Origin: a virus
Length of the DNA stretch: 13,110 bases
Direction: 5' to 3' (one strand)
UHGV virus genome: UHGV-0162637
This document shows, piece by piece, positions 1 through 13,110 of the stretch (position 1 is its first letter; each line of letters opens with the position of its first letter). The notes under the pieces are model-generated. The model did not search any database. It was given only the letters and a program-made list of their open reading frames with translations, and was not told the DNA's origin. The position numbers and the translations under genes are program-made.

Positions 1-49
1 AGATAAAAGAAATCCCCGCGAGTGCGAGGATTGTTATGTAATATTTGGT

Positions 50-331
50 TTAATCATCTATATGTTTTGTACAGAGAGGGCAAGTATCGTTTCCACCGTA
101 CTCGTGATAATAATTTTGCACGGTATCAGTCATTTCTCGCACATTGCAGAATGGGGATTTGTCTTCATTAGACTTATAAACCTTCATGGAATATTTGTAT
201 GCCGACTCTATATCTATACCTTCATCTACATAAACACCTTCGTGATGTCTGCATGGAGACAAGACACCGGATCTGCACAACATTGATAACGCCCAATCTT
301 TTTGCTCAGACTCTAACTCATTGATACTCAT
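50..331 (-). CDS. Ea8.5-like small Cys-rich phage protein (93 aa), function unknown
   Basis: Intact 282-nt ORF with ATG at 331 preceded by AAGGAG at about 8 nt. Same length and relative position as lambda ea8.5 (recalled); several Cys residues including a CPLC motif suggest metal binding. No sequence identity was verified. Confidence 0.55.
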   Translation of the reverse strand: MSINELESEQKDWALSMLCRSGVLSPCRHHEGVYVDEGIDIESAYKYSMKVYKSNEDKSPFCNVREMTDTVQNYYHEYGGNDTCPLCTKHIDD

Positions 332-533
332 TTATAAACTCCTTGCAATGTATGTCGTTTCAGCTAAACGGTATCAGCAATGTTTATGTAAAGAAACAGT
401 AAGATAATACTCAACCCGATGTTTGAGTACGGTCATCATCTGACACTACAGACTCTGGCATCGCTGTGAAGACGACGCGAAATTCAGCATTTTCACAAGC
501 GTTATCTTTTACAAACCCGTATTCCTGCTCATA

Positions 534-1058
534 TTACTCTCCTTTGATGCGAATGCCTGTTGCAATGCTGTTTATGATGCTGTCAGTGCATGGGGTAGAA
601 AGCTGGGCATCTCCAGCAATTTTCATGACCTCAACATCTGCATATCGAATACCGAGGTGTATCAGACCGGCTATACCTGACTTAAGCCGAGCATTTTCCA
701 TAAACAGATCCTTTGCCCGCTGTTTTTCTGCCTCAAGCTCAACGCGCAACTTCCCTACCGTTAACGCAATTTCCTCGTTCTCCTGATCGCGGCGTTTTAT
801 GTATTGCTGGTTTCTTTCCCGTTCATCCAGCAGCGCCTGCACTACTTCAGGGTTGAAAGCTGCGATATAACGAGCGTTGTTCTCTGCGTTTTTCTGTTCG
901 TCGAATCCTGGCCAGTCGACAATATCTCCGTGATGATTATCACCTGGTGTGTGTACGGCGTACGTGCCGTATTTGCCCGGCGAAATAAATGCGACCCATT
1001 CACCCTGTGTTGCCTGTTTTGCTAACTCACGCAGTGCCTGATAGTCAATCTTGCTCAC
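534..1058 (-). CDS. Ead/Ea22-like family phage protein (174 aa)
   Basis: GTG start at 1058 preceded by AAGGAGG at 6 nt; GTGA overlap with the stop of the upstream gene (translational coupling). Contains an AAFNPEVVQALLDERE-type segment that I recall as typical of Ead/Ea22-like proteins. Confidence 0.65.
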   Translation of the reverse strand: MSKIDYQALRELAKQATQGEWVAFISPGKYGTYAVHTPGDNHHGDIVDWPGFDEQKNAENNARYIAAFNPEVVQALLDERERNQQYIKRRDQENEEIALTVGKLRVELEAEKQRAKDLFMENARLKSGIAGLIHLGIRYADVEVMKIAGDAQLSTPCTDSIINSIATGIRIKGE

Positions 1059-1606
1059 TGGTTGCCTCCTTTGCGAAGCTGGTCGGCGAACAAACGTACA
1101 CTAGACGCTTCACTGCGTAGAAACTTAACGGCATAATCAAAACCACCTCGTTCTGCGTCGTCTGCTCCGTTGTCGAGGTTATCTGCGTACATCTCTACCC
1201 CCTGCGCCCGTACTTCAGCCAGGAAAGCATCGGTGGCTGGGGTTTCGATATCGTTAATTTCAGGAAGAATCTCTTCCCATGTGGCGATATCGCCATTCAA
1301 ATGCCATCCGGCAATTCCACTGGAGTTATCCGCAACACTGCGAACGGCTTCAATAGTTTCGAGCATTACCGCATTCTCCGCCGCAAGCGCCGAAAACTTC
1401 TCGTGTGCCAACTTAACAGCTGCATCAGCCTGCTTAATTGACTCAATCGCTCTCTGCTGGTCTTCGGACAGAGCCGAAATCTTGGCCTCCGCTTCAGCAA
1501 ATTTACGCACCAGATATTCAGCGTTTGTTTCGTTAACCTTTAAATCACTTGGGATGCATTTATCTTTCAGAAAACCATCCATCTCAATTAGTGACATTTG
1601 TTTCAT
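1055..1606 (-). CDS. Ea22-like phage protein (183 aa), function unknown
   Basis: ATG at 1606 with GGAGTGGG upstream; ATGA overlap with the stop of the upstream ORF. Size (552 nt) and position match lambda ea22 (recalled). Acidic, predicted coiled-coil-rich. Confidence 0.6.
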
Positions 1607-1767
1607 TTTTTCCCACTCCGCAACATCGCATTCAGATATTTGTTTTGATTTACTGACGGAAAAGAATTTCTCTTAAGCAATTCCTCTCTCGATGGCATTG
1701 GCTTTACGCGCTGGCGAATAATCATTTCTGCCGGAAGAATGCCGGGATTGTATGCAAGTCCTCTCAT
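1603..1767 (-). CDS. hypothetical small phage protein (54 aa)
   Basis: ATG at 1767 with GAGGAA 6 nt upstream, immediately after the TGA of the preceding gene; 3' end overlaps the Ea22-like start (ATGA). The longer 104-aa version in the ORF track overlaps the upstream gene in another frame and is unlikely. Confidence 0.4.
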
Positions 1768-1777
1768 GGTAAATTCC

Positions 1778-2071
1778 TCAGTCATTACTGATAGCGCCAT
1801 AGCGTGAGCGGTAATTACGCAGGCGCGGGTCAATTTCAGGGAAGTGGGTATATGTGGCTTTGCGGAATGGTCGGATTGATGTCTGGTAAATTCGCTCGCG
1901 TTCTTCTTTCTCTGCAAGCCATATACAGTGGCGAAATTCCTTTTCCTTTTTCGTTTCCTGCGGTAGCGACATTATCCGATCGTAGTTTTTTCTGAATTTA
2001 TCCAGCACCTCCGATACGGAATTGCCGGAACAGCGGCGCGGGTCATCCGCACCATACAGAGGCGCTGGCAT
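1778..2071 (-). CDS. hypothetical phage protein (97 aa); lies where P22 carries abc1/abc2, possibly Abc2-like (speculative)
   Basis: ATG at 2071 with AAGGA about 8 nt upstream, 23 nt after the SSB-like stop; the track ORF begins at a TTG further upstream. Position just downstream of erf and the 97-aa size resemble P22 abc2 (recalled, not verified). Confidence 0.5.
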
Positions 2072-2094
2072 AATGGAATCCTTATTTTGCAAAT

Positions 2095-2478
2095 CTAGAA
2101 GGGAATTGAATCGTCGTATTCAGGATGATTTTGATGATTGCTACTTTGCTGCTGTTGGCTGTTTCCTGAAGTTGCAAATCCAATCTTTGCATTCAGTAAT
2201 TCAAGATTGATTGATTGACCATTTTGCCCCTGATAAACATCAACCCTGATGTTTTCTCCGGTAATTTCAACAATGCCACCTTCAACAAGAACACTACGGT
2301 AGTAATCCGCTTGCGCTCCCGGCTTGGCAAATACAACGGCGCTGTAGTTTGTCCATTCTTTCTTTTTTGTCTGGCGATCGTAATACTGAACGCCAGCACG
2401 GATGTTGAATCCGATATTTTCCCCGGCCTGAAACTCTCTTGCGGGCTTGTTTAGTCTTACAGTAATCGAATGTGCCAT
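2095..2478 (-). CDS. ssb: single-stranded DNA-binding protein (SSB-like, OB fold, 127 aa)
   Basis: ATG at 2478 overlaps the erf stop (TAATG) and has AAGGAG upstream. The protein shows the SSB core pattern (EWTNYSAVVFAKPGAQADYY...VLVEGGIVEI), a Gln/Ser-rich linker and the acidic C-terminal tail DDSIPF (compare E. coli SSB DDDIPF). The 157-aa track ORF carries a non-coding N-terminal extension. Confidence 0.75.
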   Translation of the reverse strand: MAHSITVRLNKPAREFQAGENIGFNIRAGVQYYDRQTKKKEWTNYSAVVFAKPGAQADYYRSVLVEGGIVEITGENIRVDVYQGQNGQSINLELLNAKIGFATSGNSQQQQSSNHQNHPEYDDSIPF

Positions 2479-3083
2479 TAAGCAGCCGCTCCTTCTAATT
2501 CGTCTCGTCTGATGTTGTAAACGTCCTGCGCTTTGTGCTGCTCCGGTGTGCCTTCGAGCATCTTCCACGCTTTGGCGAACGCCTGTTTAAGCTCTTCTAC
2601 GGTGTTTTTCTGCATTGCTGCGTCAGTGAATGCTTTTAGAACCTGTTCAGGTGTAGGTGATGGTTTTGATTGCTTTGCTGCTGCGTTCTGCTGATGTTTA
2701 TGCTCGTCTGTATCTGCATCTTTCGCATCATCAATGCCGAACAAACCATTGAGGCAATACTTGCGTGCATAAGAGCTTGTGGCTCCCGTAACTTGTGCAG
2801 AATCCATTCCTTTCTTGCTTTCTTCCTCTCGTGCAAGAGCGGTTGCTGTATGACTGTTTTCGCCATCAGTAATAGTTGCCGTGGCTTTCACGTAATACCG
2901 TTCACCAATCAACACAACTTCATCGCTGATTGATAAAAACAGGCCATTCAGTAACGGCTTAACACCCTCAAGAATGTCTTCGCAGCTTCTGTATTTATAT
3001 TTGCCGAATGAGTTGTATTGATTCTTTGGCGCGTTCAGATTCTCCTGAATAGCTGCCAGTCTTGCGTAAAATTCTTTGCTCAT
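2478..3083 (-). CDS. erf: Erf (essential recombination function) single-strand annealing protein, P22 Erf family
   Basis: Translation from ATG 3083 (MSKEFYARLAAIQENLNAPKNQYNSFGKYKYRSCEDILEGVKPLL...) closely matches my recollection of P22 Erf. The track ORF starts at an upstream TTG; I trimmed to the first ATG. Confidence 0.85.
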   Translation of the reverse strand: MSKEFYARLAAIQENLNAPKNQYNSFGKYKYRSCEDILEGVKPLLNGLFLSISDEVVLIGERYYVKATATITDGENSHTATALAREEESKKGMDSAQVTGATSSYARKYCLNGLFGIDDAKDADTDEHKHQQNAAAKQSKPSPTPEQVLKAFTDAAMQKNTVEELKQAFAKAWKMLEGTPEQHKAQDVYNIRRDELEGAAA

Positions 3084-3172
3084 ATGATTGTTCTCAGAAT
3101 GGACATGGCCCAAGGAAATAACGCTGATTTAATACTTCAGTCTTTGCCGCATTTAAAAATACGCGAACACCT

Positions 3173-3343
3173 TCACGATCTCCCTTCTGGCGATACATTA
3201 ACGCCTGCTGAGTGTACATGCGTCTCTGTAACTTGCTCTCCTTCACTGTGGTTGAAAGTGACATGAATATCTCCTTCGTTACCGATTAAATCTTTCATCT
3301 GACGAATGAATTCTTCGTCTGACCAGTTATCTGTAAAACTCAT
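3173..3343 (-). CDS. small phage protein (56 aa) at the Kil/Arf position between cIII and erf
   Basis: ATG at 3343 overlaps the stop of the CIII-like gene (ATGA), as lambda kil overlaps cIII. Identity as Kil or Arf is positional only. Confidence 0.45.
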   Translation of the reverse strand: MSFTDNWSDEEFIRQMKDLIGNEGDIHVTFNHSEGEQVTETHVHSAGVNVSPEGRS

Positions 3344-3510
3344 GGACGGCCTTGTTGTTTCAAAATATCCCAAAGCTTTTCGAGCAAACTTTTCATTCTT
3401 GGTTGTTTAAAGTCTGCTCCGGTTAGAATGTTTTTTCGTGAATGCTGTACCGATAAAATCGGGTTGAAAGGGCGAACCGATGCCGCCCCTGCAATAGCGA
3501 ACTGTTGCAT
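3340..3510 (-). CDS. cIII: CIII-like protein (inhibitor of FtsH-mediated CII degradation), 56 aa
   Basis: ATG at 3510 with GGAG 7 nt upstream. N-terminus MQQFAIAG and the segment SLLEKLWDILKQQGRP resemble lambda CIII (MQYAIAGW..., ...RLIDILNQPGVP, recalled). The track ORF extension upstream runs through a terminator hairpin and is not coding. Confidence 0.65.
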   Translation of the reverse strand: MQQFAIAGAASVRPFNPILSVQHSRKNILTGADFKQPRMKSLLEKLWDILKQQGRP

Positions 3511-3574
3511 AGGATGCTCCTTCTGTTTGATTGCATAACGAAAACGCCTCGAGTGAAGCGTTATTGGTATGCAT

Positions 3575-3600
3575 ATAAAAAGACCCTCACATTGGAGGGC
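3575..3600 (-). terminator. putative intrinsic terminator downstream of the membrane-protein gene
   Basis: On the minus strand: 5-bp GC-rich stem (CCCTC/GAGGG, plus one wobble pair), 6-nt loop, followed by CTTTTTATAT. Lies between the membrane-protein gene and the CIII-like start. Confidence 0.45.
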
Positions 3601-3749
3601 AAAGAAGATTTCCAATAATCAGAACAAGTCGGCTCCTGTTTAGTTACGAGCGACATTGCTCCGTGTATTCACTCGTTGGAATGAATACACAGTGCAGTGT
3701 TTATTCTGTTGTTTATGCCAAAAATAAAGGACGATTATGCGGCCTGAAA

Positions 3750-4199
3750 TTACTTAACCAATGATGCTGCATATTCGATAAGGTAAAGTTTTGGGGCCAG
3801 CCAAATTTTTAACCAAGTCATATTGGTTACTACACCAATAATAAAAATCCCCCACAGAGTCAAAACTCCAACCAATGGCATGATAAGAAGATTAATATCA
3901 CCTTTGCTATCCCAAACCATTGTCGGCCTGTATTTGGGATTTCCTTTCTCCCATGAATATCCTTCATCACCGATTTTACCTGTCTCAACTCTTTGGCACT
4001 GCTTCTTCATAAACCAGAAAACCAGTGGGATTGTTAGAATGGCTATTAATGTTTTAATCAGACTGTCAACCATATTCCATAGCAGCAACTGATGAACAAC
4101 ATCAGGAATCTGTGCTTGGCTAAATGAAACAGCCGCGTCTATTCCATTACTGGCTTTTTGCAGTAGTTCTACGAGAATCTTGTTTGCTTGTTCTTCCAT
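3750..4199 (-). CDS. predicted two-TM inner-membrane protein (149 aa), unknown function; candidate moron
   Basis: Intact ORF with two hydrophobic segments (about residues 47-63 and 108-128) and a charged loop between them. Sits in the slot lambda uses for ea10 between ral and cIII, with no obvious SD. Flanked by an identical 14-mer (3717-3730 and 4238-4251) and followed by a terminator. Confidence 0.7.
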   Translation of the reverse strand: MEEQANKILVELLQKASNGIDAAVSFSQAQIPDVVHQLLLWNMVDSLIKTLIAILTIPLVFWFMKKQCQRVETGKIGDEGYSWEKGNPKYRPTMVWDSKGDINLLIMPLVGVLTLWGIFIIGVVTNMTWLKIWLAPKLYLIEYAASLVK

Positions 4200-4257
4200 A
4201 TATCACATTGATTGTAATAAGCATGAAATTATTTACGGCCAAAAATAAAGGCCACCA

Positions 4258-4458
4258 TCAGGCAGCCTTGTTGTTCTGTTTACCAAATTCTCTGGCAATC
4301 ATTGCCGTCGTTCGTATTGCCCATTTATCGACATATTTCCCATCCTCCATTACAGGAAACATTTCTTCAGGCTTAACCATGCATTCCGATTGCAGCTTGC
4401 ATTCATTGCATCGCTTGAATTGTCCACACCATTGATTCTTATCAATAGTCGTAGTCAT
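4258..4458 (-). CDS. ral: Ral restriction-alleviation protein (66 aa)
   Basis: 66-aa product MTTTIDKNQWCGQFKRCNECKLQSEC... matches my recollection of lambda Ral in length and sequence; position between the N-like gene/sieB and cIII is the same as in lambda. Confidence 0.7.
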   Translation of the reverse strand: MTTTIDKNQWCGQFKRCNECKLQSECMVKPEEMFPVMEDGKYVDKWAIRTTAMIAREFGKQNNKAA

Positions 4459-4528
4459 ACGGATAGTCCTGGTATTGTTCCATCACATCCTGAGGATGCT
4501 CTTCGAACTCTTCAAATTCTTCTTCCAT
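4442..4528 (-). CDS. orf28-like acidic peptide (28 aa: MEEEFEEFEEHPQDVMEQYQDYPYDYDY)
   Basis: 87-nt ORF whose 3' end overlaps the ral start by 17 nt, the same arrangement I recall for the 87-nt ORF upstream of ral in lambda. Below the size cut-off of the ORF track; translation done by hand. Confidence 0.35.
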   Translation of the reverse strand: MEEEFEEFEEHPQDVMEQYQDYPYDYDY

Positions 4529-4671
4529 ATATCACCTTAAATAGTGGATTGCGGTAGTAAAGATTGTGCCTGTCTTTTAACCACATCAGGCTCGGTGGTT
4601 CTCGTGTACCCCTACAGCGAGAAATCGGATAAACTCTATTCACCCCTACAGAGAGCAAAAGAGAAACGCAG

Positions 4672-5253
4672 ATGAACAACTCATGGTGGCAGGAACTAAT
4701 GCATTTTTTCCTGCAAGGAATGACACTTAAACAGTTGATTCATATGCTAATCATCCTGATCATATTGATTATTGTTATGCCGGTAAGCGTAAAAGAATGG
4801 ATAAACCTGCATAATCCAGAAATCCTTCCTCATTATTGGATGTATTACATCCTGTTGTTCTGCGTTAGCTATGTGCTTAACGGTGTTGTTAATTCCGCTT
4901 ATCACGCTGTGACTGAAAGAATTGAGGTATCCGCTGCTCAGAAGCGCAAATCTAAAGAAGAAAAATATGTGCAAGATTTGTTTGATTCGTTAACTCTTGG
5001 AGAAAGAGCGTATTTGGCATTCGCTGTAGCCGCGAATAACCAGCTAAAGACAGAAAAGGGAAGCCATGAAGCAATCTCATTGCTCGAAAAAGGGCTTCTT
5101 ATTCGGATACCTTCTGCTACTGGATATCCTGAAATCGACCGTTTTGTTATCCCTGAACGCTATAGAAATGAGTGCTACATTAGGTTTGCTGGGAAGAAAG
5201 ACAGCCTTATGGATGAACTTATCGCTCAGGATAAGCATGGCAAAAACAAGTAA
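4672..5253 (+). CDS. sieB: SieB-like superinfection exclusion protein B (193 aa), membrane anchored
   Basis: Only plus-strand gene inside the leftward operon, between ral/orf28 and the N-like gene as sieB is in lambda and P22 (recalled). N-terminal hydrophobic segments then a charged C-terminal domain. AT-rich. Family assignment is from position, size and topology, not alignment. Confidence 0.65.
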   Translation: MNNSWWQELMHFFLQGMTLKQLIHMLIILIILIIVMPVSVKEWINLHNPEILPHYWMYYILLFCVSYVLNGVVNSAYHAVTERIEVSAAQKRKSKEEKYVQDLFDSLTLGERAYLAFAVAANNQLKTEKGSHEAISLLEKGLLIRIPSATGYPEIDRFVIPERYRNECYIRFAGKKDSLMDELIAQDKHGKNK

Positions 5254-5269
5254 TTAGCAAATGAATTTA

Positions 5270-5542
5270 TCATCTCGCCGTCAGTTGTTTTGATTTCCGG
5301 TAGCCTGCCGAGTAAATGGCTACGTTTGGCAGGCAAATACTTCCACTGCATTCTTCTGCCTTCTTGCAGCGAAGGCTTCCGAGTGATGCTGCTTTGTCTG
5401 CTCTGACGCAACCAGAGAGCTTTAACGCAATTTTTCGCGCCAGTGCTTCATTACTGCGTCGCTCGGCAATAAGTTCTGCTCTGCGAGCTTTGTAGCGGCT
5501 TTTTGCCGTACCTTTGGATTCTTTCCAGACAATGGTTACCAT
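5270..5542 (-). CDS. N: N-like transcription antitermination protein (P22 gp24 family), 90 aa
   Basis: ATG at 5542 with AAGGAG 7 nt upstream. Arginine-rich N-terminal motif (GTAKSRYKARRAELIAERR) and C-terminus ...YSAGYRKSKQLTAR resemble P22 gp24 (recalled). First gene downstream of the PL/nutL region. Confidence 0.75.
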   Translation of the reverse strand: MVTIVWKESKGTAKSRYKARRAELIAERRSNEALARKIALKLSGCVRADKAASLGSLRCKKAEECSGSICLPNVAIYSAGYRKSKQLTAR

Positions 5543-5652
5543 GATGGTCTCCTTTAAGTGGCTTTGGCGCATGACGCGTCGAGGTGCTTATCTTCTCGAT
5601 CGCTGTCTTGCAGCTGCAATTCGCGCCATCCCCAAAACCACTCAAGTTCTGG

Positions 5653-5693
5653 TCTCAACGGTTAGGTTGAGAGTTCGTAGATGTTAAAGAGCC
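5653..5693 (-). promoter_or_regulatory. putative nutL (boxA plus boxB hairpin)
   Basis: Minus strand reads GCTCTTTAACA (boxA, matching the rrn/lambdoid boxA consensus) followed 10 nt later by a 7-bp stem (TCTCAAC/GTTGAGA) with loop CTAACC. Located in the leader between PL and the N-like gene. Confidence 0.5.
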
Positions 5694-5729
5694 TGCCAAT
5701 CTGTTCCGTTTGGCTTCCAGTCTCCTGCT

Positions 5730-5810
5730 GATGGCTTAAATTTAAGACTTCTTAATTTGTTGGTCAAGTGTATTTTTGAAGAAAACTTAATTTTATGGGC
5801 GTGAATTTAG
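5730..5810 (-). promoter_or_regulatory. OL/PL region: leftward early promoter with P22-type operator
   Basis: Minus strand has -35 TTGACC (plus 5762-5767), a 17-nt spacer and -10 TAAATT (plus 5739-5744). The palindromic operator AATTTAAGACTTCTTAATTT (5738-5757) carries the TTAAG/CTTAA half-sites of P22 C2 operators and overlaps the promoter. Confidence 0.5.
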
Positions 5811-5832
5811 TTTGTCTTTGATTTTTAACGGG

Positions 5833-5857
5833 AAATAAAAAAGGGGCGAAAGCCCCT
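5833..5857 (-). terminator. intrinsic terminator immediately after the repressor gene
   Basis: Minus strand: TAA stop, then GGGGC-TTTC-GCCCC hairpin followed by TTTTTTATTT. Classic rho-independent terminator. Confidence 0.75.
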
Positions 5858-6507
5858 TAAGGAAGGTTTGCTAGCTTGGCATCAACGACAACGCCAATGA
5901 TTTTACAGTTCCCATTGATTTCAATCATTGGGTATTGTGGATTGAGTGGTTTCAGGAATTTTCTACCGGCATCAATAACTAACTTTTTGAATGTCGCCTC
6001 GTTTTCTCCTTCAAGTTTGGCGACTACCAGCTTTCCATTACGTGGTTCGACTTCTGGGTCGACGAGAATAATCATCCCCTCAGGAATACTCAGTCCTGCC
6101 GGGGCAGTCATTGAATCGCCTTTAACGTCGAGCCAAAAAGAGTCTTCAGAACAATCTACCGTTGTGTCGTACCAGTTATCTATTGCACGCCTATGATATG
6201 GCTCTACAGCTTCCATCCAACATCCTGCGCTTACCCAACTAATTAGAGGATACGAACCTCTTGGATCATGCCTGCTGTGATAGGCAATGTTTGAAAGACT
6301 ATCCTCTCCTTTCAACAGGTAATCAGGGGAGCACTGCAAAGCCTTGGCTAAGGCCAATAGGTTTTCGCCATTGGGCTCAGTTTCAGATCGCTCCCATTGG
6401 GAAATAGCAACATTAGACACGCCAACCATCTTTCCAAGGGCAGCCTGCCTAATCTTGAGTTCTTTTCTGCGAGCGCGAATACGCTCACCCATCAGTTGTG
6501 TATTCAT
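5857..6507 (-). CDS. c2: C2/CI-type prophage repressor (HTH plus S24 LexA-like autopeptidase domain), P22 C2 family
   Basis: 216-aa product MNTQLMGERIRARRKELKIRQAALGKMVGVSNVAISQWERSE...GVVVDAKLANLP matches my recollection of P22 C2 nearly throughout. Divergent from cro across an operator region. Confidence 0.9.
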   Translation of the reverse strand: MNTQLMGERIRARRKELKIRQAALGKMVGVSNVAISQWERSETEPNGENLLALAKALQCSPDYLLKGEDSLSNIAYHSRHDPRGSYPLISWVSAGCWMEAVEPYHRRAIDNWYDTTVDCSEDSFWLDVKGDSMTAPAGLSIPEGMIILVDPEVEPRNGKLVVAKLEGENEATFKKLVIDAGRKFLKPLNPQYPMIEINGNCKIIGVVVDAKLANLP

Positions 6508-6587
6508 AGTTAAGACATCTTAAATAAACTTGACTTAAGATTCCTTTGGTGGATAATTTAAGTGTTCTTTAATTTCGGAGCGAGTCT
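6508..6587. promoter_or_regulatory. OR operator region with PR (and divergent PRM)
   Basis: Three 18-bp P22-type operators: AGTTAAGACATCTTAAAT (6508-6525), a TTAAG-containing site around 6528-6549, and ATTTAAGTGTTCTTTAAT (6556-6573, as I recall for P22 OR1). PR: -35 TTGACT (6530-6535), -10 GATAAT (6552-6557), GGAG SD before cro. Confidence 0.8.
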
Positions 6588-6773
6588 ATGTACAAAAAAG
6601 ATGTTATTGACCACTTCGGAACCCAGCGTGCTGTTGCTAAAGCACTAGGCATTAGCGATGCAGCAGTCTCTCAGTGGAAAGAAGTTATCCCAGAGAAAGA
6701 CGCCTATCGATTGGAAATCGTTACAGCTGGCGCCCTGAAGTATCAAGAAAGTGCTTACCGCCAAGCGGCATAA
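6588..6773 (+). CDS. cro: Cro repressor (P22 Cro family), 61 aa
   Basis: MYKKDVIDHFGTQRAVAKALGISDAAVSQWKEVIPEKDAYRLEIVTAGALKYQESAYRQAA matches P22 Cro as recalled; transcribed rightward from PR. Confidence 0.9.
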   Translation: MYKKDVIDHFGTQRAVAKALGISDAAVSQWKEVIPEKDAYRLEIVTAGALKYQESAYRQAA

Positions 6774-6780
6774 GCAAATT

Positions 6781-6820
6781 GCTCTTTAACAGTTCTGGCC
6801 TTTCACCTCTAACCGGGTGA
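6781..6820 (+). promoter_or_regulatory. putative nutR (boxA plus boxB hairpin)
   Basis: GCTCTTTAACA (6781-6791), identical to the boxA of the putative nutL, followed 11 nt later by hairpin TCACC-TCTAACCG-GGTGA. The loop shares CTAACC with the nutL hairpin loop. Confidence 0.5.
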
Positions 6821-6888
6821 GCAAACATCAGCGGCAAATCCATTGGGTGTGCCGCTATAACTCAATACCAATATAGGAAAATTAACAA

Positions 6889-7185
6889 ATGGCACAAGCA
6901 AGCTACAGCAAGCCAACACAGCGAGAAATTGATCGCGCTGAAACTGATTTACTCATCAACCTGTCAACGCTTACCCAGCGCGGTCTGGCAAAGATGATTG
7001 GCTGTCATGAATCGAAGATAAGCAGAACGGACTGGAGATTTATTGCTTCGGTCTTGTGTGCTTTCGGAATGGCATCAGACATCAGTCCGATTAGCAGGGC
7101 TTTTAAGTATGCGCTTGATGAAATCACAAAGAAAAAATCCCCGGCCGCCACCGAGGATTTTAAGCAAATTGATATGCAATTCTGA
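6889..7185 (+). CDS. cII: CII-like transcriptional activator (lambda CII / P22 C1 family), 98 aa
   Basis: AGGAAA SD; C-terminus ...TKKKSPAATEDFKQIDMQF parallels lambda CII ...TNKKRPAATERSEQIQMEF (recalled); central HTH-like segment; canonical position after cro and nutR. Confidence 0.85.
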   Translation: MAQASYSKPTQREIDRAETDLLINLSTLTQRGLAKMIGCHESKISRTDWRFIASVLCAFGMASDISPISRAFKYALDEITKKKSPAATEDFKQIDMQF

Positions 7186-7217
7186 GGGAATTACTGGATC
7201 AATCCACAGGAGTAATT

Positions 7218-7379
7218 ATGACAAAACGTCGTAAGAAATACCAGGAAAAAGAAGAGATTCGACACCCTGATTCACCTGAGGGATTAGTGGTAGCCGCAGC
7301 AAATAACAGGGCGTTCGCAGAGCGCCTTGTTGGTGTTTACAGACTAGCCAAAGCAGGAGTGAAACATGGGCGTCGTTAA
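7218..7379 (+). CDS. hypothetical small basic protein (53 aa) between cII and the O-like gene
   Basis: ATG at 7218 preceded by ACAGGAG at 6 nt; product MTKRRKKYQEKEEIRHPDSPEGLV... . Its 3' end overlaps the O-like start by 14 nt. Below the ORF-track size cut-off. Confidence 0.4.
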   Translation: MTKRRKKYQEKEEIRHPDSPEGLVVAAANNRAFAERLVGVYRLAKAGVKHGRR

Positions 7380-8256
7380 GTTAGCTGATTACAGGCATAA
7401 CCCTGTACAACATCAGGAGGCATCCAGTATGGGGTATGTCTCTATACACCGCCAGTTTATGGACAGCAGGCTCTATAAGGACTCTCAGGCAGTACATCTT
7501 TGGCTTCACTTAATCCTCAAGGCTAATCACGAATCTACTGTCGTCAATACGGATATCGGTCCGATAACTGTTGATCGCGGTCAGATGATAACTGGACGCC
7601 CGTCGCTGGTCAGAGAAACATTCATTCCAGACAACAAAGTTCGGAGCTTATTACGGACTTTTGAGTCGAAAGGGATGCTTAATATTTGCTCGATGGGGAA
7701 GAAATTTAGCCTGTTTACAATTGTTAAATATGACGATTTTCAGGCAAAAAATTGTCCAACGGTTGTCCAACGATTGTCCAACGCAACCCCCAGTAATGGC
7801 GCGGCTCTCAGCGGAGATTGTCCAACGGTTGTCCAACGATTGTCCATAAACAATAATATAAATAATATCTCTAATACTGACGTATTAGAGAGTACCGCAG
7901 CAGACAAAAAGTCTGACAAGAAAAAACCTTCCGTTAGCTGTCAGGATGTTGTCGATGCTTACCACGAAATCCTTCCTGAAGCGCCAAGAATCCGCGCACT
8001 GAATGACAAGCGTAAAAACCAGATCCGAACGTTCTGGCGCAAAGCCGGAGTAATAACACGTCAACTTGACGGGCATGGGTTCACGATGCAGGACTGGAGA
8101 AATTATTTGAGCTACGTTGGCGAAAATTGCCGATGGATGTTCGAAGAGCGCCCAAACCATCAACGCGGAACCGTCTGGCACAAAAAGGGATTTGATTTCC
8201 TGCTTAACGATAATACCTACCTGAAAGTTCGTGAGGGTGAACACGATGACCGATAA
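7366..8256 (+). CDS. O: replication initiator protein (lambda O-like), origin iterons embedded in the gene
   Basis: Position after cII; the iteron cluster in mid-gene is translated as the repeat CPTVVQRLSN. AGGAG SD before ATG 7366; an alternative in-frame ATG at 7429 has an AGGAGG SD, so the true start may be 7429. Confidence 0.8.
   Translation: MGVVKLADYRHNPVQHQEASSMGYVSIHRQFMDSRLYKDSQAVHLWLHLILKANHESTVVNTDIGPITVDRGQMITGRPSLVRETFIPDNKVRSLLRTFESKGMLNICSMGKKFSLFTIVKYDDFQAKNCPTVVQRLSNATPSNGAALSGDCPTVVQRLSINNNINNISNTDVLESTAADKKSDKKKPSVSCQDVVDAYHEILPEAPRIRALNDKRKNQIRTFWRKAGVITRQLDGHGFTMQDWRNYLSYVGENCRWMFEERPNHQRGTVWHKKGFDFLLNDNTYLKVREGEHDDR
7753..7880. repeat. lambdoid replication origin: six iterons plus AT-rich region
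   Basis: TTGTCCAACG at 7753, 7764 and 7775, then again at 7818 and 7829, with a variant TTGTCCATAA at 7840 (11-bp periodicity, two clusters 33 bp apart), followed by an AT-rich stretch 7850-7880. Same architecture as lambda ori inside O. Confidence 0.8.
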
Positions 8257-8788
8257 TTTTTATGCGCCGCCCCATAGCATCGAGGCAGAGCAGGCGGTGA
8301 TTGGTGGATTGCTTCTGGATGATGACAGCAGTGAGCGCGTCCAGAAAGTTCTGGCGATGCTGAAGCCTGATTCATTTTACAGCCGACCACACAAAATCCT
8401 TTTCGAAGAAATAACCAGAATGCACCGGGAGCAAAAGCCAGTAGATGGCCTGACGCTTTTCGATGAACTGGAGCGTAAATCGTTAACGGTGTCTGTTGGC
8501 GGTTTTGCTTATATCGCTGAGATCGCAAAGAACACGCCAAGCGCAGCAAACATCGTTGCCTATGCAATGCAGGTTCGTGAAACCGCAATGGAACGCTACG
8601 CCATCAACCGCATGACTGAAGCGACGGAATTGCTCTATCTCACAGTAAAAGCCGCCGGTGTGTGGGCGGGTGGCATTGAAACACCTTCGGTGGAAACTCC
8701 ATCGGAAGGTTCAAAATTTTTTGGTTTTGATATGGATAACGAATTCATCAGTGGTTTTGATGTAGGAGCATGGGGAAAATTACTCTGA
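8246..8788 (+). CDS. DnaB-family replicative helicase, N-terminal domain only (truncated, likely non-functional fragment)
   Basis: ATG 8246 with GAGGG SD, overlapping the O stop. Residues PPHSIEAEQAVIGGLLLD...SVGGFAYIAEIAKNTPSAANIVAYA align with the E. coli DnaB N-terminal domain (recalled). Similarity ends after about 140 aa and the ORF stops at 181 aa; the RecA-like ATPase domain is absent. Confidence 0.7.
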   Translation: MTDNFYAPPHSIEAEQAVIGGLLLDDDSSERVQKVLAMLKPDSFYSRPHKILFEEITRMHREQKPVDGLTLFDELERKSLTVSVGGFAYIAEIAKNTPSAANIVAYAMQVRETAMERYAINRMTEATELLYLTVKAAGVWAGGIETPSVETPSEGSKFFGFDMDNEFISGFDVGAWGKLL

Positions 8789-9690
8789 TGGCTAAAAATG
8801 AATTTAAACCATTTGCAACTGGCTCTGGTGCTAACGTAACAACTCAGACAGACTGGGAATCATTACCTGTCCTATCTGCTGGCTTTACATCGGGGAAGGC
8901 ATCAAGTGCTCAGGTGAACAAAGGTCTGAGGCAAGGAACGGCAATGGCGGCTGCTGTGGGGCAGTTTATCGCAGATAATACCAGTGAGGATGTGAAAGAT
9001 AATGGTGATATTGCGGGGCTCTCTGCGCAATTAGCGAGTGCGGTAGAGCAGGCTGCAACAGGACGGCTTATTGGTGTTCGCACAATAACGACATCCGGGA
9101 CTTATACGCCAACCCCAGGAACGAAAAGCATTATTGTTGAAGTCCAAGGCGCAGGCGGAGGAGGGGGCGGGGTTGGTACAACTAACTCTACCAGTGTTGC
9201 AGTTGGGTGTGGAGGGGGAGGTGGCGCCTACGCTAAATCCCGTATCACCAATTTAGACTCAGCATATACTGTAACCATTGGAGCTGGTGGAGCTGGTGGG
9301 GTTAACGGTAATGGAGGAAACGGTGGTGGATCTTCTTTCGGATCTATAACCGCTGGCGGTGGATTTGGTGGTGGTTCAGGAAATGGGGTACCTCCTATTA
9401 TTCAGAACTCACCAGGAATTCCTATAGCATCCGGAGGTAATATTTTAAATCTCTCTGGAGAGAATCCAACTATTGGCATGGCTATATCGACTAGCTCTAT
9501 CATCTCTGGTGGCGGAGGTAATAGTCCATTAGGTGTGGGTGGTAATCCACACGGCTCAGCGGGTATCGGTGTATTGCCGACTGGTTTCGGGGCTGGGGGC
9601 GGTGGGGCTAACGCATATGTGAATAATGCCACCCAATATAACGGAGCCGCCGGTGGTAATGGTATTGTTCTTATCTGGGAGTATGCATGA
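8788..9690 (+). CDS. glycine-rich protein (about 300 aa), possibly phage tail-fibre-like; function unknown
   Basis: Long intact ORF; ATG 8788 overlaps the stop of the helicase fragment (TGATG), with an alternative in-frame ATG at 8770. Non-glycine-rich N-terminal region of about 130 aa, then poly-Gly and GxGG tracts to the C-terminus ...GIVLIWEYA. Family assignment is tentative. Confidence 0.65.
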   Translation: MAKNEFKPFATGSGANVTTQTDWESLPVLSAGFTSGKASSAQVNKGLRQGTAMAAAVGQFIADNTSEDVKDNGDIAGLSAQLASAVEQAATGRLIGVRTITTSGTYTPTPGTKSIIVEVQGAGGGGGGVGTTNSTSVAVGCGGGGGAYAKSRITNLDSAYTVTIGAGGAGGVNGNGGNGGGSSFGSITAGGGFGGGSGNGVPPIIQNSPGIPIASGGNILNLSGENPTIGMAISTSSIISGGGGNSPLGVGGNPHGSAGIGVLPTGFGAGGGGANAYVNNATQYNGAAGGNGIVLIWEYA

Positions 9691-9866
9691 TGAAATATGC
9701 ATTGGTAGAAAATGATGTTGTGATTAACGTTATATTATGGAACGGCGATGGAAAACAATACGATGATTATCTCTGTATAAAGCTTGACGACAATAGCGTT
9801 GTTGGTGTTGGGTATACATATTCAGAGGGTAGGTTTTTGCCCCCTGAATATATTGATGAATTATAG
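9687..9866 (+). CDS. hypothetical small protein (59 aa) coupled to the glycine-rich gene
   Basis: ATG overlaps the stop of the glycine-rich ORF (ATGATGA); product MMKYALVENDVVINVILWNGDGKQYDDYLCIKLDDNSVVGVGYTYSEGRFLPPEYIDEL. Its 3' end overlaps the convergent acyltransferase stop by 6 nt. Below the ORF-track size cut-off. Confidence 0.35.
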   Translation: MMKYALVENDVVINVILWNGDGKQYDDYLCIKLDDNSVVGVGYTYSEGRFLPPEYIDEL

Positions 9867-10955
9867 TGGTGAAATATTTTTACTCATTATTAGTCTCCCT
9901 GTTCTTATAAATTTCTTTTCTACATATCTATATGATAAATCAGAAAAGACAACTAGCAAAAGAATGAAAGCGAAGAAGTATATAACTTTGTTTTCGTAAA
10001 TGACGGTGTTAAGGGAGAGTTTGTTCAAAACCTCCCTTGTTACATGTAGTAATGGTAAATGGCAAAGATAAATGCTATAAGATCTATCCCCAATCCAGTC
10101 CAGCATTTTATATGCTGGATTATCTTTTTTATCTACCACACCACCACTAATAAAACATAGAAATAATAATGCACCAGCAAAACCAATCGCAGGTAATGTC
10201 AATCTATAGTTAAAGTGCTGAGGGGCAACGAGTAAAACAAAAATGCAAACTATAATAAAAAATAGTCTTGTGCATTTATTGCTTACATAACACTTGCTTC
10301 CAGTTATGAATATAATTGCTCCCAGAAAGAATGCTTGTGGTCTAATCCACCAACCAATGGATTGATAGTACATTTGAGTTACTGGCAGGAAAGATGCAAT
10401 AGCTACTATGAATATGAAAATAATCGTCAGATTTTTCCTGTTAAAGAGCAGCATGATTGCCGCAATTATAGCATACAGTTGCCATTCCAAAGATAGAGAC
10501 CAGGTCACCGCATTCATTTGGTCACAATCATTTGCTGTTACTGCGCACCTATAGAAGTGGATATTAGAATAACCAAGTAGGGATGTATATAACGTAGTGA
10601 ATGATTTAAGAGGTGAAACACCCCAAGAAGGTTGCATAAAATAAGAGATTATTATACAGATGGTGCCCCATACAAGTAAGCATGGGGCTAGCCTAAATAT
10701 TCTTTTAGATAAAAATAATAAAAATATTTTAGTTGTTCTGCCGGTTTTTTTTATTTCCCCAGTTAAGCTTTTAGCCATCAAATATCCAGATATAGCCAAA
10801 AATATATCAACTCCAGCCCAATAATTAACGTAATTAAAACTGCTCAAATACCAATCTGGCGAAGGTAATCTATTTCTATAATGTTGTAGAATAACCATTA
10901 TTATGGCTACCGCCCTTAGCGCTTGAATGTCAAGGTTTTTATTATTTAGGGTCAT
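9861..10955 (-). CDS. acyltransferase family 3 integral membrane protein (O-antigen acetylase-like, Oac/OafA type)
   Basis: 364-aa polytopic membrane protein with the conserved N-terminal motif LDIQALRAVAIIMVILQHY and many hydrophobic segments. Visibly AT-rich compared with flanking DNA. Lies at the prophage/host boundary where P22- and Sf6-like phages carry O-antigen modification genes (recalled). Confidence 0.85.
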   Translation of the reverse strand: MTLNNKNLDIQALRAVAIIMVILQHYRNRLPSPDWYLSSFNYVNYWAGVDIFLAISGYLMAKSLTGEIKKTGRTTKIFLLFLSKRIFRLAPCLLVWGTICIIISYFMQPSWGVSPLKSFTTLYTSLLGYSNIHFYRCAVTANDCDQMNAVTWSLSLEWQLYAIIAAIMLLFNRKNLTIIFIFIVAIASFLPVTQMYYQSIGWWIRPQAFFLGAIIFITGSKCYVSNKCTRLFFIIVCIFVLLVAPQHFNYRLTLPAIGFAGALLFLCFISGGVVDKKDNPAYKMLDWIGDRSYSIYLCHLPLLHVTREVLNKLSLNTVIYENKVIYFFAFILLLVVFSDLSYRYVEKKFIRTGRLIMSKNISPL

Positions 10956-11887
10956 GCTATACTCATCTTATTTAAGAATAAATATTAGATGGTAATCATA
11001 ACCTACCATCAGCTTGCTTTCATTGCCTGGAGCATGATTGTGGCAAAAAATTAGCGCAAAAAAAACTCAAAACTGGCGAAGGTGTCGATTCGTCTTGCGC
11101 TAATGTTCTGTGCCATTTTTGTGTCACACGCAGTTTGACACCTTAGATCATTTTCAATCATGTACCATCAACTTCATTAGTGTGAATGCGGAGATGGCCT
11201 TTATAAACAGTTAGTTATGCGTGATTCTGCTAATTCGTAATGCGAAGGTCATGTGACGTTACCGTCAATCCAGTCCGCCCACCACTGCATCATTTTTCTG
11301 CGCTTAACGTAGCGGATGTCTCACTATCACACGGTGATGGTCCATTACTGCTTTGTAGAATGGATAGAGAACTGAGGATAAAAAGATATCCCAAAACCCA
11401 AAATCTCATCTTTAGGATTTGCAGAAAGGTAGGCGTGAACAGATACCTACACATGAAGACGGAGCTAGTCCAGATGTGATATTTGTGGTGATCACATACA
11501 TCATCAACGATGCTCGTTATGGTGAGTTTGATGACTACCCGCTGAAGTGAAAATTGTGTTGTGTACCAAATTGCGTACCAAACTAAAATCACAAATCATG
11601 AAACCCTTGTTCATGGCGGTTCTCAGGGGTGTTTCGCGTAATCGTGAAACAAAAAGGTAGATTGTTGCTTACCGTCATTCATCATTAGGTTAAATCCGTT
11701 ATTTCTGCTGTCTGCCAGAGTATCAAATATCACCGTGCTAATCAGCTTTAGCGCCACAATTTGGCAGCGAGTGGCAACAGATCATGTCAGATAAAAATGA
11801 GAGGGTAGTCACATTTTCTTGCACTTTATTCCAGCCAGTTCATAAGTATTTCCGTAAAAAGAACAGCTATTTGAAACTCCTGAGGGT

Positions 11888-13060
11888 TTGCTGTTGAAAC
11901 GCCGTCTTATTATTGCTGCTTCTTTGTTCGTTTTTAACTTATCGTCTGGTTTTGCGGCGGAAAACATTCCTTTTTCACCTCAGCCTCCAGAGATTCATGC
12001 CGGGTCCTGGGTATTGATGGATTACACCACCGGTCAGATCCTCACCGCGGTTAATGAGCATCAACAGCGCAATCCCGCCAGCCTGACAAAGCTGATGACG
12101 GGTTATGTCGTGGATCGCGCTATCGATAGTCATCGCATTACGCCAGACGATATTGTCACCGTGGGGCGCGATGCGTGGGCGAAAGATAATCCGGTGTTTG
12201 TCGGTTCTTCACTGATGTTTTTGAAAGAGGGCGATCGCGTATCGGTACGTGATTTAAGCCGTGGTTTAATTGTGGATTCTGGAAATGACGCTTGTGTTGC
12301 TCTGGCTGACTATATTGCCGGTGGGCAACGGCAGTTTGTTGAAATGATGAACAACTATGCCGAGAAGCTGCATCTCAAGGATACGCATTTTGAAACAGTG
12401 CATGGTCTGGATGCACCTGGCCAGCATAGCTCGGCTTATGATTTAGCTGTGCTTTCTCGCGCTATCATCCACGGCGAGCCCGAGTTTTATCATATGTACA
12501 GTGAGAAAAGTCTCACCTGGAACGGTATCACCCAGCAAAACCGTAACGGGTTGTTGTGGGATAAAACCATGAATGTTGACGGCCTGAAAACGGGTCATAC
12601 TTCTGGTGCCGGGTTTAATCTCATTGCTTCGGCTGTAGATGGGCAGCGTCGTCTCATTGCAGTGGTAATGGGGGCTGACAGTGCAAAAGGTCGTGAGGAA
12701 GAGGCAAGAAAATTACTGCGTTGGGGGCAACAAAACTTTACTACGGTGCAAATTTTGCACCGTGGGAAAAAGGTCGGAACGGAACGCATCTGGTATGGCG
12801 ATAAAGAAAATATCGACCTGGGAACGGAACAAGAGTTCTGGATGGTGCTACCGAAAGCCGAAATTCCACATATCAAAGCCAAATATACCCTTGATGGTAA
12901 AGAGCTCACCGCGCCAATTAGCGCCCATCAGCGGGTAGGGGAAATTGAACTTTACGACCGTGATAAACAGGTGGCGCACTGGCCGCTGGTTACCCTGGAA
13001 TCTGTCGGGGAAGGCGGCATGTTTTCCCGCCTGAGTGATTATTTCCACCATAAGGCCTGA
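11888..13060 (+). CDS. dacD: D-alanyl-D-alanine carboxypeptidase DacD (penicillin-binding protein 6b)
   Basis: 390-aa product with signal peptide and the SxxK (ASLTK), SGN and KTG motifs of class-C low-molecular-weight PBPs; matches E. coli DacD as recalled. The start is a TTG at 11888, so the exact start is uncertain. Confidence 0.9.
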   Translation: MLLKRRLIIAASLFVFNLSSGFAAENIPFSPQPPEIHAGSWVLMDYTTGQILTAVNEHQQRNPASLTKLMTGYVVDRAIDSHRITPDDIVTVGRDAWAKDNPVFVGSSLMFLKEGDRVSVRDLSRGLIVDSGNDACVALADYIAGGQRQFVEMMNNYAEKLHLKDTHFETVHGLDAPGQHSSAYDLAVLSRAIIHGEPEFYHMYSEKSLTWNGITQQNRNGLLWDKTMNVDGLKTGHTSGAGFNLIASAVDGQRRLIAVVMGADSAKGREEEARKLLRWGQQNFTTVQILHRGKKVGTERIWYGDKENIDLGTEQEFWMVLPKAEIPHIKAKYTLDGKELTAPISAHQRVGEIELYDRDKQVAHWPLVTLESVGEGGMFSRLSDYFHHKA

Positions 13061-13110
13061 CCTTTCTTTTGCAGCAGACTGGCAGGAGTGCGAGTCTGCT
13101 CGCATAATCA

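Follow-up and report, generated by a model that had tools for sequence, protein, structure and literature searches.

The window analyzed in this study is the whole 13,110-nucleotide stretch of the UHGV virus genome UHGV-0162637, read on one strand from 5' to 3'. It contains phage genes for recombination, superinfection exclusion, immunity and replication initiation, followed by a fused ORF, a tail-fibre gene, a short ORF, an acyltransferase gene, a non-coding phage arm, an att core and the host gene dacD. These features are listed in Table 1, and positions in the text are those of the window.

Table 1. Features of the window, from left to right, with the evidence used to assign each.
Feature	Position	Strand	Basis
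ead/Ea22-like and ea8.5-like genes	left end of window		Identical contig
Block of recombination genes, including a 127-aa ORF	1778..3083	-	Pfam
abc2, anti-RecBCD	1778..2071	-	Anti-RecBCD_p2 on identical contig
erf	2478..3083	-	Pfam ERF
ral	4258..4458	-	Identical contig
sieB, superinfection exclusion	4672..5253	+	Pfam SieB, E=3.4e-24
N antiterminator	5270..5542	-	Pfam N_peptide on identical contig L005
cI-type repressor, intact, 216 aa	5857..6507	-	Pfam HTH_3 and Peptidase_S24 (self-cleaving)
cro	6588..6773	+	Pfam P22_Cro on identical contig
cII	6889..7185	+	Pfam Phage_CII, E=2.7e-33
53-aa ORF upstream of O	7218..7379	+	PHROG 1331; also in W284, BEN2908 and PI24
O-like replication initiator, intact	7366..8256	+	PHROG 345 replication initiation O-like, E=6e-85
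Fusion ORF, helicase residues 1-131 and wedge residues 178-226 in frame	8246..8788	+	Pfam; translation matches W284 to ...ELLY and PI24 from YLTVKAAG...
Helicase-derived part: DnaB N-terminal domain and ~19 residues towards the linker	8246..8638	+	Homology ends at 8638
Deletion junction at TAT, 3 bp of microhomology that both parent genes read as Tyr	8636..8638		Three-way alignment; megablast overlap
Wedge gene (Phage_Wedge1/DUF2612) 3' end, last 50 codons and stop	8636..8788	+	PI24 frame and stop codon shared
Tail-fibre gene, glycine-rich, 300 aa	8788..9690	+	Pfam Gly_rich_2; PHROG tail-fibre families 863, 11303, 6202 and others; best E=3e-58
59-aa ORF after fibre gene	9687..9866	+	Also in PI24 and the MS15047 remnant; PHROG families without assigned function
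Acyltransferase_3 family gene	9861..10955	-	Pfam PF01757, E=4.7e-28; PHROG O-acetyltransferase, E=2e-50
Non-coding phage arm beside attR, with two GTACCAAA repeats (11563, 11575) also present beside attL	10956..11636		Sequence repeats
attR core CGTAATCGTGAAA	11637..11649		K-12 empty site matches window 100% from 11637 on
Host dacD	11894..13060	+	Gene identification

The early-left, immunity and O/origin regions are kept complete in the element, together with int and both att cores. A preliminary description of this DNA, made from the sequence alone, held that immunity, exclusion and recombination genes were retained, and cI, cro, sieB, erf and abc2 were each identified in our analysis. The origin iterons are located inside the O gene and consist of two sets of three TTGTCCA repeats (7752-7784 and 7818-7846), which the Sf6 record annotates as lambda-origin-like. 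A pR-like promoter match precedes cro at 6530-6557, and it is a consensus match only, from a scan with counts near background. A simple scan for plus-strand terminators between O and the fibre gene and 59-aa ORF also gave near-background counts and no convincing candidate.

The fusion ORF encodes 180 amino acids, from an ATG at 8246 to a TGA at 8786-8788; the frame is also open from a GTG upstream at 8231, which gives a 185-aa version. Pfam identified the DnaB N-terminal domain (PF00772, E=1.8e-31) over its whole profile, and PHROGs assigned residues 1-131 to a DnaB-like replicative helicase family. DnaB_C (PF03796), the RecA-like ATPase domain that contains the Walker motifs, was not found by Pfam in the 180-aa product. 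The full-length relative in strain W284 is a helicase of 478 residues, with PF00772 at residues 8-112 and DnaB_C at residues 190-445. The fusion ORF tracks this helicase to residue 131, apart from a single V/A substitution near residue 82, and then diverges; over its last 49 residues it is the exact C-terminus of a baseplate-wedge protein. The wedge parent is 226 residues long with DUF2612 at residues 4-185; only residues 178-226 are present in the fusion ORF, and DUF2612 (Phage_Wedge1) was not detected there by Pfam. In addition, tblastn searches of the whole window with helicase residues 132-478 and with the missing part of the wedge protein gave no significant match. The chimaera is a whole DnaB N-terminal domain without the ATPase domain and without the wedge domain. 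Residues 1-131 also match the helicases P22 gp12 and Sf6 gp44, with 98.3% nucleotide identity to the Sf6 gene region; unlike these proteins, the fusion lacks the linker and the RecA-like ATPase domain (190-445 of the full protein). The preliminary description had placed at the same coordinates a DnaB-like ORF truncated after its N-terminal domain, which is what was found, and had the ORF diverge before its stop codon into unrelated sequence. The divergence is real, but the sequence beyond it is the in-frame 3' end of a baseplate-wedge gene. Alignment against full-length helicases, which the description had proposed for locating the breakpoint, ended the homology at 8638, after residue 131.

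Megablast was used to identify the two parents of the fusion, with window positions 7300-10000 as the query and 5,426 complete E. coli genomes as the database. None of the 5,426 genomes covered the whole query, and none contained the junction. The left match, query positions 1-1339 (window 7300-8638), was found at 98-99% identity in hundreds of prophages that carry a full-length helicase gene after the O-like gene. The right match, query positions 1337-2701 (window 8636-10000), was found in PI24 at 99.9% identity, and the PI24 annotation across it reads baseplate wedge 1 family protein, glycine-rich domain protein, hypothetical protein and acyltransferase. The two matches share query positions 1337-1339. 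Window positions 8200-8638 have 99.5% nucleotide identity to W284 and 98.6% to BEN2908, and the right part has 99.7% nucleotide identity to the PI24 locus (L001, from position 20001). No single sequenced prophage was at least 99% identical on both sides; the best left match (W284 or BEN2908) and the best right match (PI24) differ. Among isolated phages, the O and helicase genes of mEp234, mEp506, HK106, HK629 and Sf6 are 98.3-98.7% identical to the window, while the closest match to the right part in the isolated-phage collection was 181 nt of wedge/fibre sequence in the vB_EcoM-606R2 group. A three-way alignment of the window with L002 and L001 showed that the window equals the W284 helicase gene to ...GAATTGCTCTAT and the PI24 wedge gene from TATCTCACAGTA... 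on, with an overlap of TAT only. This TAT is a Tyr codon in the same phase in both parent genes, and thus the fusion is in frame. The fusion ORF ends at the wedge gene's own stop codon, the TGATG overlap with the start of the fibre gene is kept, and the position of the fibre gene after the wedge gene is the same in PI24 and BEN2908.

Different projects that assembled isolates or metagenomes independently recovered the same junction, in contigs as long as 68-114 kb. An assembly artefact, in which a chimaeric contig joins two prophage regions, is therefore next to impossible: prophage repeats often break or mis-join short-read assemblies, but only 3 bp are common at this join, and there is no repeat to mislead the assembler. 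Across NCBI, ENA and Logan assemblies made independently of one another, 18-24 contigs encode the exact fusion protein, with the same surroundings in each case, and the protein forms a single-sequence cluster. Carrier isolates include GCA_006236175.1 and GCA_043291675.1. Two metagenome contigs (L005/L026 and L007) match the window at 100% identity, isolate and Logan contigs match it at 99.97-99.99%, and the copies compared differ from the window by at most three substitutions over 13 kb. This near-identity points to a recent deletion event in one lineage.

The ends of the element were defined by alignment with E. coli K-12, which has an empty site with a dacD-sbcB intergenic region of 208 bp. 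Host DNA begins at the attR core with the displaced native 5' end of sbcB, followed by the intergenic region, and the match on the attL side ends at the same short core stretch. The attL site is the same 13-mer, CGTAATCGTGAAA, located upstream of attR on contig L026, which is identical to the window; the element between the two core copies is 13,675 bp long. Phages 2851 and Sf101 are reported to have an attP core of the same sequence (PMC4159516). The 13-bp core of this att type was found at both ends of the element, within the 5' end of sbcB. A longest-common-substring search for att repeats returned the GTACCAAA repeats, and the core came from the K-12 empty-site alignment. The GTACCAAA repeats are putative integrase-binding sites. 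To the left of the window, identical contigs carry a 114-aa ORF, a small ORF in the xis position and a 392-aa tyrosine integrase, and then sbcB. This integrase lies beside attL, adjoins sbcB and was assigned by its Arm-DNA-bind_3 and Phage_integrase domains. Beyond sbcB are tsuB, tsuA, plaP, yeeY, yeeZ and yoeB-yefM, and to the right of the element are dacD, sbmC, yeeA and tmaR. The leftward extension used a 183-aa protein as the query. The ea8.5-like protein (window 53-331) was too common for this purpose, with entries in 19,309 of the collection's blocks, and matched unrelated prophages.

BEN2908 carries an apparently complete prophage of 41,215 bp between sbcB and dacD, with the 13-bp core at each end. 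Its left part contains int, the xis-position gene, the early-left genes, N, cI, cro, cII, the 53-aa ORF, O and the 478-aa helicase gene. These are followed by the nin genes, Q, holin, endolysin, Rz, terminase, portal and head genes in the middle, and by sheath (DUF3383), tube (DUF3277), tape measure, baseplate, DUF2612 wedge, fibre and acyltransferase genes on the right, and then dacD. When the breakpoint codons were mapped onto this prophage, the missing interval was 26,700 bp, and nin, Q, lysis, terminase, head, sheath, tube and baseplate genes are missing by comparison. The deletion size of 26.7 kb is an estimate, because the ancestor is reconstructed from a mosaic and no single prophage matches both sides. 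The nin, Q, lysis, terminase, head, sheath and tube genes are absent from the window, and the same late genes are absent from 7.4 kb rightward and 8.9 kb leftward on contigs 100% identical to the window. Between its att sites the element consists of phage DNA from which genes required for lytic growth are gone (13,675 bp, against 41,215 bp in BEN2908). As read from the sequence, the distal ~2.3 kb of the late/moron region survives.

These comparisons support the large internal deletion, leaving a cryptic prophage, that the preliminary description had proposed: the related prophage in BEN2908, at the same sbcB/dacD site, contains the interval of ~26.7 kb that is missing here. Late genes on contiguous sequence beyond the window would have counted against the description, and only host genes were found there past the integrase and left genes and past dacD. 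It had the order of the glycine-rich gene, the acyltransferase gene and dacD right, with the 59-aa ORF to be added between the first two. Two of its statements need to be narrowed. The absence of nin, Q, lysis, terminase and head genes holds, but that of all tail genes does not, as the glycine-rich gene is a tail-fibre gene and the end of the fusion ORF is a wedge fragment. Similarly, everything after early replication was said to be missing, which applies to the 26.7-kb interval but not to the distal region.

The two sides of the junction have different closest relatives, and the right part is 99.9% identical to the prophage of PI24, which sits at argW, while the left replication genes match other prophages best. 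The junction could on this basis have come from recombination between two resident prophages, one of sbcB type and one of argW type like that of PI24, and not from an internal deletion. This is very unlikely for several reasons. First, the right end of the element has the sbcB-type att core and arm, not intS/argW. Secondly, the host flanks, sbcB at one end and dacD-sbmC-yeeA at the other, keep the collinear arrangement of the empty site in K-12. Third, an exchange between sbcB and argW would delete or invert ~380 kb of the chromosome. Lastly, the same contractile-tail late module ending in wedge, fibre and acyltransferase genes occurs naturally in sbcB-integrated prophages, as in BEN2908. From the BEN2908 module, the att type and the collinear flanks, the mosaic is better explained by lambdoid module exchange before the deletion.

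We conclude that the element, most of which lies in the window, is very probably a defective lambdoid prophage of 13.7 kb, integrated next to dacD at the sbcB 5' end in E. coli and made by one internal microhomology deletion of ~26.7 kb. Three observations carry this reading: there is only one junction, at which 3 bp of microhomology are shared; the sequence to either side of it is nearly identical to intact genes; and the chromosomal flanks are conserved. The ancestor would have been a ~40-kb mosaic temperate phage with a P22/Sf6/mEp234-type early region, an sbcB-specific integrase and a contractile-tail late region ending in the wedge gene, the fibre gene, the 59-aa ORF and the acyltransferase gene. 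One illegitimate recombination at TAT inside the resident prophage would have deleted the DNA from helicase codon 131 to wedge codon 177, taking with it the helicase linker and ATPase domain, nin, Q, the lysis, terminase and head genes and nearly all of the tail genes. The in-frame join that produced the 180-aa chimaera would have arisen by chance.

Such a deletion is predicted to have several consequences. First, the remnant should not replicate from its own origin, because its own DnaB-type helicase is no longer there to be loaded or run. In this phage group a DnaB-type helicase, as in P22 gp12, stands in for the lambda-P-type loader. Secondly, the late genes could not be switched on with Q gone, and cell lysis and particle assembly would be impossible. 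Third, the fibre gene and the 59-aa ORF would now form the end of the rightward early operon and, with no convincing terminator after O, would be transcribed only on cI inactivation. In the lysogenic state, cI, sieB and the acyltransferase gene are expected to be expressed, which would provide cI immunity and SieB exclusion. Lastly, the remnant may still excise, since it has intact copies of int, the xis-position gene and the two att cores.

The 180-aa chimaera itself is most probably a non-functional by-product, and we suggest that 8246-8788 be annotated as a helicase/baseplate-wedge fusion pseudogene and not as a helicase. A selected role for the short DnaB-N-terminal protein, for example as a dominant-negative decoy against the helicase/primase contacts of superinfecting phages, is extremely unlikely. 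The fusion is in frame, for which the chance is one in three, a complete N-terminal domain is kept, as are the start overlap with the O gene and the TGATG overlap with the fibre gene, and PHROGs contains short DnaB-N-terminal-like families (phrog_20000 and phrog_23150). However, the 49 residues at the C-terminus come from an arbitrary stretch of a structural protein, and in a lysogen the ORF would sit in the cI-repressed rightward operon. The protein is also not a conserved full-length family in intact phages, a possibility that the earlier reading had raised against its own view; it is confined to one near-clonal set of ~18-24 contigs, which offers no sequence diversity on which to assess selection. 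Nothing supports a functional role for the chimaera. If it were expressed as a decoy, phage exclusion would be due in part to the deletion scar itself.

The defective prophage resembles several known systems. It shares its att core with the sbcB-integrating lambdoid phages 2851 (an Stx phage) and Sf101 (a Shigella phage), a set that also includes the mEp234/HK544 integrase group, and it matches mEp234 at 98.5% identity in the O and helicase genes. An acyltransferase moron beside the att site is a further feature in common with Sf101; the genome organization of Sf101 is Sf6-like, whereas the ancestral late region of the remnant is of the contractile-tail type. In contrast to these phages, which are complete and viable, the remnant has lost 26.7 kb of a contractile-tail-type phage. 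It has the same site, att core, gene order and late architecture as the BEN2908 prophage, with O and helicase genes 98.4% identical, but the immunity region, early-left genes and acyltransferase gene are different alleles, and identity is 76% across the wedge 3' end and the start of the fibre gene. In E. coli K-12, Rac, DLP12, Qin, e14 and KplE1/CPS-53 are lambdoid remnants in which lytic genes are deleted and int/xis are often kept. The remnant is similar to these defective prophages in the loss of lytic genes and the retention of some regulatory, exclusion or recombination genes. However, those of K-12 are old, multiply rearranged and widespread, whereas the remnant is apparently a recent, single-step deletion in one lineage, in which each remaining ORF is intact and at least 99% identical to functional relatives. 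A phage satellite of the PICI-like kind was also considered and rejected, because the element has no dedicated small-element gene set, with a primase/replicase of its own and genes for helper exploitation and packaging redirection, and is a collinear subset of ordinary prophage DNA. Its genes are 98-100% identical at the nucleotide level to ordinary prophage genes and collinear with them, with the chimaeric ORF at the scar.

The retained acyltransferase is, by its sequence, probably an O-antigen O-acetyltransferase moron. Its protein identity to the acetylases of isolated phages was 25-29%, with nothing above 29% in the phage collection. An intact prophage with exactly this acyltransferase was sought, and the protein was found only in the deleted remnant. 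Maintenance of the remnant for the protection of its host, as proposed earlier, is plausible; all copies are essentially clonal, so no signal of selection can be read from the sequence. A defective prophage is an ordinary, well-known kind of element, and the present one matters little beyond annotation. It is nonetheless a clean record of how a temperate phage integrated at sbcB became a non-lytic remnant through a one-step microhomology deletion. A different block has been lost from sibling remnants at this site, and together with these it forms a small natural series on prophage decay.

L024 and L027 (reverse complement) carry sibling remnants at the sbcB site that the prophage in the window also occupies. 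Both share window 1-5396 at 99.8-99.9% identity, break at window 5396 and pass straight into late genes (see table). The genes missing from these loci are instead N, cI, cro, cII, O, the helicase, nin, Q and the lysis genes, lost in a deletion independent of the one in the window. Decay of the same prophage has thus taken at least two or three different courses in different strains. E. coli MS15047 (L003) also holds a remnant at this site, where positions 17635-20156 match window 9501-13110 at 98.9% identity. Besides the 59-aa ORF and the acyltransferase gene, all that is left there between sbcB and dacD is one fragment of IS911 and an arm-binding fragment of an integrase. The MS15047 remnant is further decayed than that of the window, its acyltransferase gene having outlasted the remainder of the prophage.

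Compared with O-antigen acetylases from the collection's isolated phages, the acyltransferase (window 9861-10955) reaches only 25-29% identity. The module of wedge, fibre, 59-aa ORF and acyltransferase is 99.9% common to the window and the argW-integrated prophage of E. coli PI24, which shows that it has been exchanged between phages with different integrases.

The fusion of helicase and baseplate wedge sequence is also present in the metagenome contig FERR18-1 scaffold_4923 (L011). The integrase upstream of it there is of the lambda type (Arm-DNA-bind_1), not the sbcB type, and the O gene is disrupted by an 11-nt indel. This contig is a recombinant or else a metagenome assembly that is chimaeric. 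A 98.7% identical copy of the helicase gene lies in E. coli AMSCJX03 (L029, positions 4947-7412), where an insertion of about 1 kb has split it into N- and C-terminal pseudogene halves. This insertion is a separate and independent route to inactivation of the helicase gene.

The TTGTCCA(A/T)CG repeats inside the O-like gene are the origin iterons; the same repeats are annotated as lambda-origin-like in the Sf6 record. In the window the initiator and origin are intact, but the helicase is not.

The paired GTACCAAA repeats beside the att cores, on both phage arms, are probably arm-type binding sites for the integrase, and if so, they would point to a remnant that can still excise. On integration the first codons of sbcB were swapped for phage-encoded ones (window 11650-11685, with attL on L026, the contig that extends past it), and sbcB is therefore 474 rather than 475 aa long. 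The native start of sbcB, now displaced, still adjoins attR as the reverse complement of ...CATCAT.

Repeats in the prophage and late genes of the sibling remnants
Feature	Position	Description
GTACCAAA repeats, right phage arm	window 11563 and 11575	pair beside att core
GTACCAAA repeats, attL side (L026)	window-equivalent -1850 and -1827	pair beside att core
TTGTCCA(A/T)CG repeats	window 7752-7784 and 7818-7846	repeats in two sets of three, 11 bp apart, inside O-like gene
Late genes, L024	past breakpoint	DUF2280, TerL, portal
Late genes, L027	past breakpoint	metallopeptidase fragment, DUF2280, baseplate J, wedge, fibre
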